64,000 bases of DNA, taken from the sequence record NC_028925.1; one strand, 5' to 3'. This DNA comes from Escherichia phage vB_EcoM_VR25. Positions 39,081 through 39,840 of this stretch are shown piece after piece; positions within the stretch are counted from its first letter, which is position 1; the number at the start of each line of letters is the position of its first letter. The translations under genes and the position numbers were made by a program. The notes below the pieces were generated by a model. That model saw nothing but the letters and a program-made list of their open reading frames with translations. It made no database searches and was not told the DNA's origin.

Positions 39081-39088
39081 TATAAATA
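39081..39088 (+). promoter_or_regulatory. Late promoter box TATAAATA upstream of the HNH endonuclease gene
   Basis: Exact TATAAATA 27 nt upstream of the ATG at 39115. Confidence 0.55.
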
Positions 39089-39114
39089 TAGTATATCACC
39101 AAAGAGGACATACA

Positions 39115-39840
39115 ATGAATTATGCTTTAATATATGAGAATTTAATGAACCGAGCCAAATCTAGAAAATTGACTGGATACAAAGAATCTCACCATGTTGT
39201 TCCTCAATGTTTAGGCGGACCAGATACAAAAGAAAACCGAGTTGATTTAACGCCGGAAGAGCATTATCTAGCACATCAACTATTGGTAAAAATTAATCCG
39301 GAACATAAAGGATTGAAATATGCTGCCTATATGATGACTATATCACCAGATGGTCGTCGGCAGAATAATAAATTATTCGGTTGGGTAAAGCGAGATTACC
39401 TAAACAATAGAATTCAATCATCTGGAATGAAAGGGAAAAAGCATAAACCCGAATCAATTCAATTGATGAAAGATAAACGTGCTCTCCAAGAAATCACCGA
39501 AACAACTAAGGCCAAAATATCTAAAACAAAAACTGGCGTAAAATTTACAAAAGAAGCACTAAAATCATTTAATGAAAAACGTTCCGCAAACCAAGCATGG
39601 ATTGATTCCAATTTTAGGCCATGTAAAGAAAGCACCAAATCTAAAATTGGCGATGCTAATAGGGGACGTGTTTTTGATAAAAAGACCTGCCCTCATTGTG
39701 GTAAAACTGGAGCAGGTCCTAATATGAAACGGTATCATTTTGATAATTGCAAATCAAAAGTCGCCAAATGCGACCTGCCAGCATTCAACACCAATACGAC
39801 GCCACATCTCGACAACATTTTGCCTATCGTCAACGGCTAA
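39115..39840 (+). mobile_element. Free-standing HNH homing endonuclease gene (mob-like)
   Basis: HNH motif SHHVVPQCLGGPDTKENRVDLTPEEHYLAHQ; C-terminal CPHCG zinc-finger-like element; own RBS (AAGAGGA) and promoter; opposite strand to all neighbours; 3' end overlaps pseT by 87 nt. Confidence 0.8.

Follow-up and report, generated by a model that had tools for sequence, protein, structure and literature searches.

The question raised by positions 39081-39840 of a 64,000-nucleotide stretch of Escherichia phage vB_EcoM_VR25 (NC_028925.1, referred to here as the window) is how a lone plus-strand HNH gene came to lie within a long run of minus-strand genes, against the 3' end of the polynucleotide kinase gene pseT. 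T4-like phages are rich in free-standing homing endonuclease genes (HEGs), and VR25 is a T4-like phage of the genus Gaprivervirus whose positions 38000-41000 in the window are 98.1% identical to Escherichia phage vB_EcoM_VR7. The comparisons described here indicate with good confidence that the gene is a free-standing HNH homing endonuclease of the T4 Mob type, predicted to be active, and that it is carried on a mobile cassette of approximately 786 bp located between the start codon of cd.4 and the stop codon of pseT. The basic identification is already public, as the records of VR7 and of phage SP18 carry a homing-endonuclease label. The borders of the cassette, the pseT terminus linked to it, a target-like 21-mer at its promoter and the kinase-specific clade of related genes are additions to the existing annotation. 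No paper analysing the VR7 or SP18 gene or describing a kinase-linked HEG was found in a search that did not include the VR7 and SP18 genome papers.

The HNH open reading frame (ORF) occupies 39115-39840 on the plus strand and encodes 241 amino acids plus a stop, with an ATG at 39115 and a TAA at 39838-39840; it corresponds to VR7 gp236 and SP18 gp235. The mechanical ORF list begins this frame at a TTG at 39076, and the ATG at 39115 is the biologically sensible start. The late promoter and ribosome-binding site (RBS) reported in the initial annotation were both found, as a T4-type late promoter box TATAAATA at 39081-39088 and a Shine-Dalgarno sequence AGAGGA at 39103-39108, 6 nt ahead of the ATG. 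The leader RNA is unstructured (-2.2 kcal/mol, z 0.15). On the right lies pseT (39754-40662, minus strand), the host gene and presumed target, which encodes a polynucleotide 5'-kinase/3'-phosphatase of 302 amino acids (Pfam HAD_PNKP 2.8e-56, AAA_33 1.8e-22). Its 3' end and the end of the HNH ORF overlap convergently by exactly 87 nt (39754-39840), as had been stated. On the left is cd.4 (38854-39054, minus strand), placed from the VR7 annotation and the alignment of empty sites, and its ATG at 39054-39052 forms the left insertion border. The gene had been described as lying before pseT, which holds only in plus-strand coordinates; it is actually downstream of the pseT 3' end, between pseT and cd.4. 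When ORFs of 70 amino acids or more were mapped greedily, the minus-strand block extended from 27556 to 55020 (27.5 kb) and was unbroken except for the HNH ORF, which is thus the sole plus-strand gene within it, as first noted.

The box TATAAATA is an enriched motif, with 20 copies in the window against 4.6 expected (approximately 4-fold), and the copy at 39081 is the sole plus-strand copy within the minus-strand block. The plus strand carries 16 of the 20, nearly always ahead of plus-strand late-gene blocks, a distribution consistent with T4-type late promoters in the VR25 phage. The orthologues of the HNH gene are preceded by the same or a near-identical late box (CATAAATA, TGTAAATA). Two sigma-70-like promoters on the minus strand inside the cassette (39290-39263 and 39158-39129) gave 9/12 matches each, and since the region contains 12 such sites against 8.3 expected they were treated as chance.

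The HNH protein matched PHROG 655 ('homing endonuclease') at 3.2e-63, and the alignment to the T4 Mob family that had been proposed gave homology to MobE over the nuclease domain, with 51% identity over residues 1-75 by BLASTP (E 1e-25). A total of 924 homologues were found, and the alignment used for conservation contained 63 homologues at 34-71% identity. Invariant in this alignment were E24, H26, H27, P30, C32, G35, N41, H50, H54, C192, C195, H208 and C212, so the HNH catalytic residues, far from being absent on alignment, are retained throughout. The catalytic motif (HHVVPQCLGGPDTKENRVDLTPEEHYLAH, residues 26-54 with H26, H27, N41, H50 and H54) is encoded at 39190-39276 and aligns position by position with its counterparts in IscB and McrA. 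It is the only HNH motif in the six frames of the window, in which no GIY-YIG motif was found either. The AlphaFold2 (AF2) model of the protein had a mean predicted local distance difference test (pLDDT) score of 85.6, and in the HNH region (pLDDT approximately 97) it contains strands at residues 24-27 and 42-45 and a helix at 47-60, which may form a beta-beta-alpha core.

Beyond the nuclease domain, residues 105-185 approximately (39427-39669) form a helical region of NUMOD3-type repeats, presumed to be a DNA-binding linker, which scored 22 bits against a Pfam NUMOD3 cut-off of 20.4 and is modelled as helices at 112-123, 129-139, 146-158, 160-166 and 172-182. The last conserved part of the protein is a CCHC zinc-finger-like module, C192-x2-C195...H208-x3-C212 (39688-39750), recognised by its invariant residues and modelled as a beta hairpin plus helix at 189-211. 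An HNH domain with a C-terminal zinc finger is the architecture of the Mob class (PMC10448857). NUMOD3 was the only Pfam family detected on the full protein, the NCBIfam scan gave nothing relevant, and whole-chain fold searches returned no significant match, including no whole-chain similarity to I-HmuI. As the tests against curated models were weak or failed, membership of the Mob class rests on direct homology and motif conservation. On these sequence grounds the gene is of the T4 Mob type and free-standing, with no intron or intein as host.

The mobility of the gene was examined by comparison with related phages. It is present in 9 of the 306 phage records that match the cd.3-pseT region, and the carriers are the seven phages VR7, SP18, TH40, TH57, P479, PSD2001 and 212. 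The copies are 97-100% identical among the Gaprivervirus carriers, and the protein is 99.2% identical to VR7 gp236. The gene is not ancestral at this site in all relatives, as a clean empty junction is found in near-isogenic TH15, in VR26 and VR20 and in the majority of the other relatives. A single base (TAATG) is common to the stop of pseT and the start of cd.4 in VR26 and TH15, and the empty junction reads CAT/TAAAAGTC; in the window about 700 bp lie exactly between that stop and that start.

The limits of the transferred unit were obtained from the distribution of mismatches to the window. The carrier SP18 differs at 100 of 405 positions in the left flank (38650-39054), 15 of 699 in 39055-39753, 2 of 87 in 39754-39840 and 194 of 807 in the right flank (39841-40650), or 25, 2.1, 2.3 and 24%, respectively. 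The empty-site phage TH15, which lacks the cassette, differs at 3 of 403 positions in the left flank, 21 of the 87 positions of 39754-39840 and 17 of 810 in the right flank (0.7, 24 and 2.1%). P479 shows the same pattern as SP18, with 24-26% differences in the flanks, 2.1% in 39055-39753 and 2-3 of 87 nt in 39754-39840. From this pattern across flanks, cassette and overlapped tract, the horizontally moving unit is taken to be approximately 39055-39840 on the plus strand, comprising the target-like 21-mer, the late promoter, the RBS, the HNH ORF and the HEG-linked pseT terminus. That such a unit is near-identical in backgrounds that are locally 25% divergent points to recent horizontal spread. 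The initial annotation had regarded the overlap with pseT as a mark of recent insertion, and this part does not stand. Judged by the divergence pattern, the overlapped pseT stretch is itself part of the mobile unit and is co-converted with the gene, and orthologues throughout the clade overlap the kinase gene by 4-87 nt. The wider interpretation as a selfish mobile HNH endonuclease is supported by the homology, the empty sites and the divergence of cassette versus flanks.

The HEG-linked pseT terminus (39754-39840, minus strand) comprises the last 28 codons plus a TGA stop and was delimited by divergence and codon comparison. In empty-site phages the terminus encodes ...DDRSQVVEMW...QV(N/A)HGDF at the C-terminus, and the HEG-linked terminus differs from this. 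It also contains, at 39758-39776 on the minus strand, a 7-bp hairpin followed by UUGAUUUG that folds better than the empty TH15 allele. This terminator-like hairpin at the pseT stop (-12.7 kcal/mol, z -1.47) was indistinguishable from shuffled sequences, and no claim is made for it.

Further changes were observed at the same junction. In Escherichia phage P896 a Seg-like GIY-YIG plus NUMOD3 gene (L002 2042-2761, minus strand; Pfam 5e-7) lies at the same cd.4/pseT junction (window 39054/39754). P896 nevertheless still has the HNH-linked pseT terminus allele at approximately 39770-39843 and the AGG..TTTCCA bases beside the cd.4 ATG, which suggests from sequence that one selfish gene displaced another. 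In T4 the junction (L020 6003-6033) contains an extra small gene, cd.5, with a same-strand 31-nt overlap with the pseT 3' end, so that T-even phages have gained genes at the pseT terminus repeatedly. In empty-site phages the cd.4 Shine-Dalgarno sequence lies within the pseT terminus (GGGGACTTTTAATG) and is removed by the insertion. The insertion also creates an in-frame upstream ATG for cd.4 (ATG TGG AAA CCT ATG; window 39052-39066, minus strand), and a longer cd.4 is annotated in SP18. Carriers and non-carriers may thus translate cd.4 differently.

The association with the kinase gene extends well beyond the Gapriverviruses. Ten orthologue contexts at 54-100% amino acid identity were compared, consisting of the window, Moonvirus KM16, Kaldavass, a 366-kb jumbo phage of Erwinia for which Mimasvirus XbC2 was the nearest relative in the search, and seven metagenomic proteins. 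In all ten the gene is convergent with the 3' end of a polynucleotide kinase gene and overlaps it by 4-87 nt, while the gene on the other side varies. One of the seven metagenomic contexts is a T4-like cd...pnk...spanin arrangement, and the other six lie beside T4-type RNA ligase genes, as in jumbo phages. The closest relatives examined lack the HNH gene in both Moonvirus and the Mimasvirus-like group. A paralogue of approximately 40% identity in phage vB_EclM-UFV01 is about 67 kb from the kinase gene of that phage. Association with the kinase 3' end across unrelated neighbourhoods is what is predicted of a site-specific selfish element.

Pairs of carriers and empty relatives were then used to locate the probable target, with positions counted from the kinase stop. 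When KM16 was compared with the empty Moonvirus CF1, the flanks were 95-100% identical and a divergent patch ran from the kinase stop to +81 (82 nt), followed by perfect identity. The corresponding patch between the window and TH15 ends at +75, and about 10 of the 19 positions between +57 and +75 differ. The comparison of Kaldavass with XbC2 gave denser differences from +0 to about +88, but was noisy, with a background identity of approximately 93% and a differing left flank. In both clean pairs the patch ends within the DDR codons of the phosphatase domain, which read GAC GAT AGG/AGA in both T-even carriers versus GAT/GAC GAC CGC/CGA in the empty alleles. Phage endonucleases of the free-standing kind cleave at some distance from the gene that encodes them, so that the DNA between gene and cut must be co-converted (PMC2988022). 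MobE, the nearest relative to have been characterised, nicks nrdB well away from where its own gene is inserted and drives co-conversion (PMC2790892). From the ends of the patches and these precedents of distant cutting we infer that the nuclease target is in or close to the DDR codons of pseT, approximately 50-90 bp from the kinase stop. The linked pseT terminus would then be the resistant allele. In the window the predicted homing-site region, in its altered and presumably resistant form, is 39802-39831, made up of the counterpart of the 21-mer (39802-39822) and the DDR codons (39823-39831).

The 21-mer itself, CCACATCTCTACTACTTGAGT, lies at 39061-39081 on the plus strand, overlapping TATAAATA by 1 nt, and is a copy of positions +48 to +68 from the stop of pseT alleles that lack the HEG. 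Among HEG-less alleles, that of T4 agrees with it at 19 of 21 positions, that of TH15 at 18 of 21 and that of VR26 at 16 of 18 aligned positions. Against the window's own pseT the 21-mer matches 13 of the first 15 positions and then diverges. When the T4 or TH15 21-mer was searched on both strands of the window with up to 3 mismatches, 39061-39081 was the sole site, with 0.02 and 0.00 expected. The upstream region was also considered as a repeat of the window's own pseT end, but 13/15 (shuffle p 0.06) was unconvincing and the signal was clear only against HEG-less alleles. An equivalent of the 21-mer is present upstream of the gene in KM16 (17/21 to the T4 type), Kaldavass, and the contexts L011, L022 and L024, and a shifted copy occurs in L016.

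Two origins and uses of this element have to be weighed. The 21-mer is 15-18/21 identical between cassettes in which four-fold degenerate sites are only 33-57% identical; between the window and KM16 the values are 18/21 and 49%. Identity above the level of four-fold sites argues for constraint, and by analogy with known systems the 21-mer is most likely retained as a binding site, a putative operator for autorepression. Its source was probably the pseT terminus that was displaced, of which it would be a remnant. These views could be compatible, the scar having been kept because the nuclease binds it, and both would place recognition at pseT +48 to +68 and the ancestral integration or cleavage near +68/+69 (window 39821/39822).

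The alternative that the 21-mer is a neutral scar with no present function is considered unlikely, though it deserves serious attention. It proposes that the ancestral cassette integrated inside the kinase gene at approximately +68/+69 with a replacement terminus and left the native remnant behind. Mobile ORFs of fungal mitochondria do bring in a gene terminus from elsewhere, and part of the native terminus persists on the far side of the ORF (PMC3630166); the topology here matches theirs, with a gene body, a divergent inserted terminus, an endonuclease ORF and a remnant nearer to the HEG-less allele than the functional terminus is. The upstream region of Kaldavass also aligns to +46 to +101 of the empty XbC2 allele with one 8-nt gap (p 0.03), so that even CATAAATA pairs with antisense kinase codons. 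Set against a scar without function are the conservation of the 21-mer relative to four-fold sites and the loss of the rest of the supposed remnant: the remaining 47 nt are gone and the 5' untranslated regions are not conserved, a pattern that argues for constraint on exactly the 21-mer.

The scheme favoured here, in which nuclease activity, cleavage position, allele resistance, late expression and operator function are all predicted, is as follows. Late in infection the TATAAATA of the HNH gene would drive its transcription, in the antisense direction relative to the early genes around it. In a mixed infection the nuclease would nick or cut the pseT gene of a co-infecting phage without the cassette, in or beside the codons of the ...DDR(S/T)QVVEMW... 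phosphatase motif, approximately 50-90 bp from the pseT stop. Recombinational repair from the carrier genome would copy the nuclease gene together with the roughly 85 bp of pseT terminus between gene and cut, and the many substitutions that this terminus carries across the presumed site would render carrier genomes resistant. The nuclease would also bind the 21-mer at the late promoter for autorepression, in the manner of I-TevI.

Several observations weigh against parts of this scheme. A near-identical copy of the gene is present in only seven isolate genomes. The N-terminus of the protein scored 13.4 bits with Pfam HNH (PF01844), below the cut-off of 21.4; T4 MobE itself scored 21.5 bits, barely above it, which indicates that the model is insensitive to the Mob-type subfamily. 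The placement of the cleavage site is based only on the ends of the divergence tracts and the 21-mer, and in the HEG-positive allele of Kaldavass the DDR codons are not recoded as they are in the T-even carriers. The 21-mers of the jumbo phages match their local pseT type at 16/21 against 14/21 for the T4 type by hand count, which is a modest co-variation.

It is improbable that the HNH gene has stopped homing and is now a decaying or inactive relic whose patchy distribution is due to ordinary recombination and loss. Defunct endonucleases exist in T4, I-TevIII being an example (PMC2790892), the VR25 gene no longer has a stop of its own and has gained a junk tail, and the carriers are only 7 of several hundred related phages. 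No copy of the ORF is broken, however, the catalytic and zinc-ligand residues are invariant, and the promoter and RBS are conserved. The conserved body has 10-11 synonymous and 2-3 non-synonymous codon changes relative to SP18 and P479, a ratio of approximately 4 to 1, and the cassette is 98-100% identical across locally 25% divergent backgrounds.

Slightly less credible again is domestication of the nuclease for the benefit of the phage, with exclusion of competitors or late antisense down-regulation of pseT as its role and mobility as a by-product. The convergent late promoter must yield RNA antisense to pseT, no convincing plus-strand terminator being found before 40264. Homing endonucleases are known to cause marker exclusion (PMC2988022) and can aid immune evasion (PMC13096335). 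Most close relatives nevertheless do well without the HNH gene, and the association with kinase 3' ends across unrelated neighbourhoods is a prediction of a selfish element.

The conserved part of the nuclease ends at residue 215 (...HFDNCKSK). Orthologues stop 0-9 residues after ...NCKxK with tails that have no similarity to one another; in the jumbo-phage copies the convergent stop codons interdigitate in a 4-nt overlap, and other copies overlap by 9, 20, 25 or 36 nt. In the lineage of the window the frame stays open as far as a chance TAA that lies 87 nt inside antisense pseT, so that the lack of its own stop gave the nuclease ORF both the 87-nt overlap and a non-conserved tail of 26 codons (39760-39837, plus strand), which has a pLDDT of 54-63. 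Among the compared Gaprivervirus copies the tail contains 0-3 codon changes per copy (2-3 relative to SP18 and P479), none of them synonymous for the nuclease, and in all but one case PseT is left unaltered. This pattern indicates that the tail evolves as pseT and not as nuclease. It is very improbable that the overlap is functional, with the last 26 residues required by the enzyme and the two genes co-adapted as an overlapping code: the tract in the window does end near the nuclease stop (last TH15 difference at 39829, stop at 39838-39840, first SP18 background difference at 39844), but the KM16 ORF ends at +36 and its tract continues to +81, 46 nt past the stop, and an argument from that meeting point was rejected for this reason. 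The overlaps of orthologues also vary from 4 to 87 nt with dissimilar tails, the model has low confidence in the tail, and each tail substitution alters the nuclease, whereas only one of them alters PseT. For annotation purposes, the last 26 residues and the apparent overlap represent read-through and not a conserved domain.

Other sites known for mobile genes in T4 had been described as empty in the initial annotation, and this was borne out for those re-examined. The td gene encodes a full-length thymidylate synthase of 286 amino acids and nrdB an uninterrupted protein of 392 amino acids, and the nrdA-nrdB and 32-59 gaps are 38 nt and 59 nt, respectively.

The region around the cassette is mosaic. 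Gapriverviruses contain two deep classes of pseT allele (window 39850-40250) with 44-70% identity per 50 nt, a divergence far above that of neighbouring genes. The window, VR7, TH15, TH40 and TH57 belong to one class and VR26, SP18, P479 and P896 to the other, a split that is independent of the presence of the nuclease gene. At 38300-38400 VR7 and TH57 differ from the window (39-40/50 identical), whereas more distant phages are identical to it, and 38650-39050 has two allele classes of approximately 70% identity. Such patches indicate, at the level of sequence comparison, frequent recombination in the cd.3-cd.4 region. A 42-nt indel at 40950-41000, at the start of the ORF upstream of pseT.1, separates SP18, TH15 and P479 from the window, VR7, TH40 and TH57.

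When the cassette is compared with known systems, the closest counterparts are VR7 gp236 (VR7ORF236w) and SP18 gp235, in which this gene occupies an identical position at the cd.4/pseT junction, 87-nt overlap included, and encodes a protein of 98-99% identity. Their labels were assigned by homology only ('putative mobile nuclease', 'homing endonuclease', 'site-specific intron-like DNA endonuclease'), and the VR7 record adds 'similar to T4 MobE'. MobE resembles the VR25 gene in having a homologous N-terminal HNH domain, in being a free-standing intergenic gene beside a conserved gene of nucleotide or RNA metabolism and in its expected action at a distance with co-conversion (PMC2790892). It differs in length (141 versus 241 amino acids) and has no significant similarity beyond the HNH domain. 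MobE also lacks a promoter, is transcribed together with nrdA from one strand and has a coupled translation (PMC2790892, PMC2988022), whereas the VR25 gene has its own late promoter and is antisense to its neighbours. Finally, MobE sits between nrdA and nrdB, while the VR25 gene is linked to pseT instead of nrdB.

The 21-mer finds its parallel in I-TevI, whose operator resembles the homing site and overlaps a late promoter, allowing autorepression without self-cleavage (PMC2988022). In both cases a look-alike of the target is placed at the enzyme's own late promoter (15/20 for I-TevI and 19/21 here) minus the flank that contains the expected cleavage (PMC2988022), and I-TevII and I-TevIII are predicted parallels. 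I-TevI is an intron-encoded GIY-YIG enzyme with a demonstrated operator function, in contrast to the free-standing HNH enzyme here, for which the candidate element sits immediately upstream of TATAAATA and shares 1 nt with it. If the comparison is correct, autorepression in the style of I-TevI extends to free-standing HNH enzymes. T4 SegG, SegF and SegE provide a parallel for the separation of insertion and cleavage sites with co-conversion (PMC2988022), into which the linked pseT tract of approximately 85 nt fits. They are GIY-YIG enzymes with mapped sites, while the site of the VR25 enzyme is predicted.

The architecture of the cassette resembles that of fungal mitochondrial ORFs, such as those in Allomyces macrogynus atp6 and in Glomus atp6, atp9, cox2 and nad3, which likewise combine an endonuclease ORF with an imported divergent 3' terminus and leave a remnant nearer to the uninvaded relative (PMC3630166). 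The fungal ORFs differ in lying on the strand of the host gene, often in phase with it, whereas the VR25 ORF is convergent with pseT, encodes an HNH enzyme, leaves only 21 nt of native terminus and has a phage as host. Paquin et al. are said to have described the Allomyces enzyme in 1994 as a GIY-YIG nuclease. It is a tentative proposal, and one that is somewhat less likely than not, that the phage HNH cassette is built like a fungal terminus-replacing mobile ORF, having a recoded resistant 3' end, a selected 21-bp decoy operator and a target in the DDR...MW codons, within a lineage that would have crossed between Mimasvirus-like jumbo phages of approximately 360 kb and at least two genera of Tevenvirinae. 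Were this so, the fungal architecture of a replacement terminus plus native remnant would also exist in phages, and a homing cassette would be tracking one conserved gene across phage genera into jumbo phages. The value of the comparison is that it supplies a delimited natural example with base-level borders and a target of approximately 30 bp, predicted to lie in codons of the catalytic motif of an enzyme of RNA repair.

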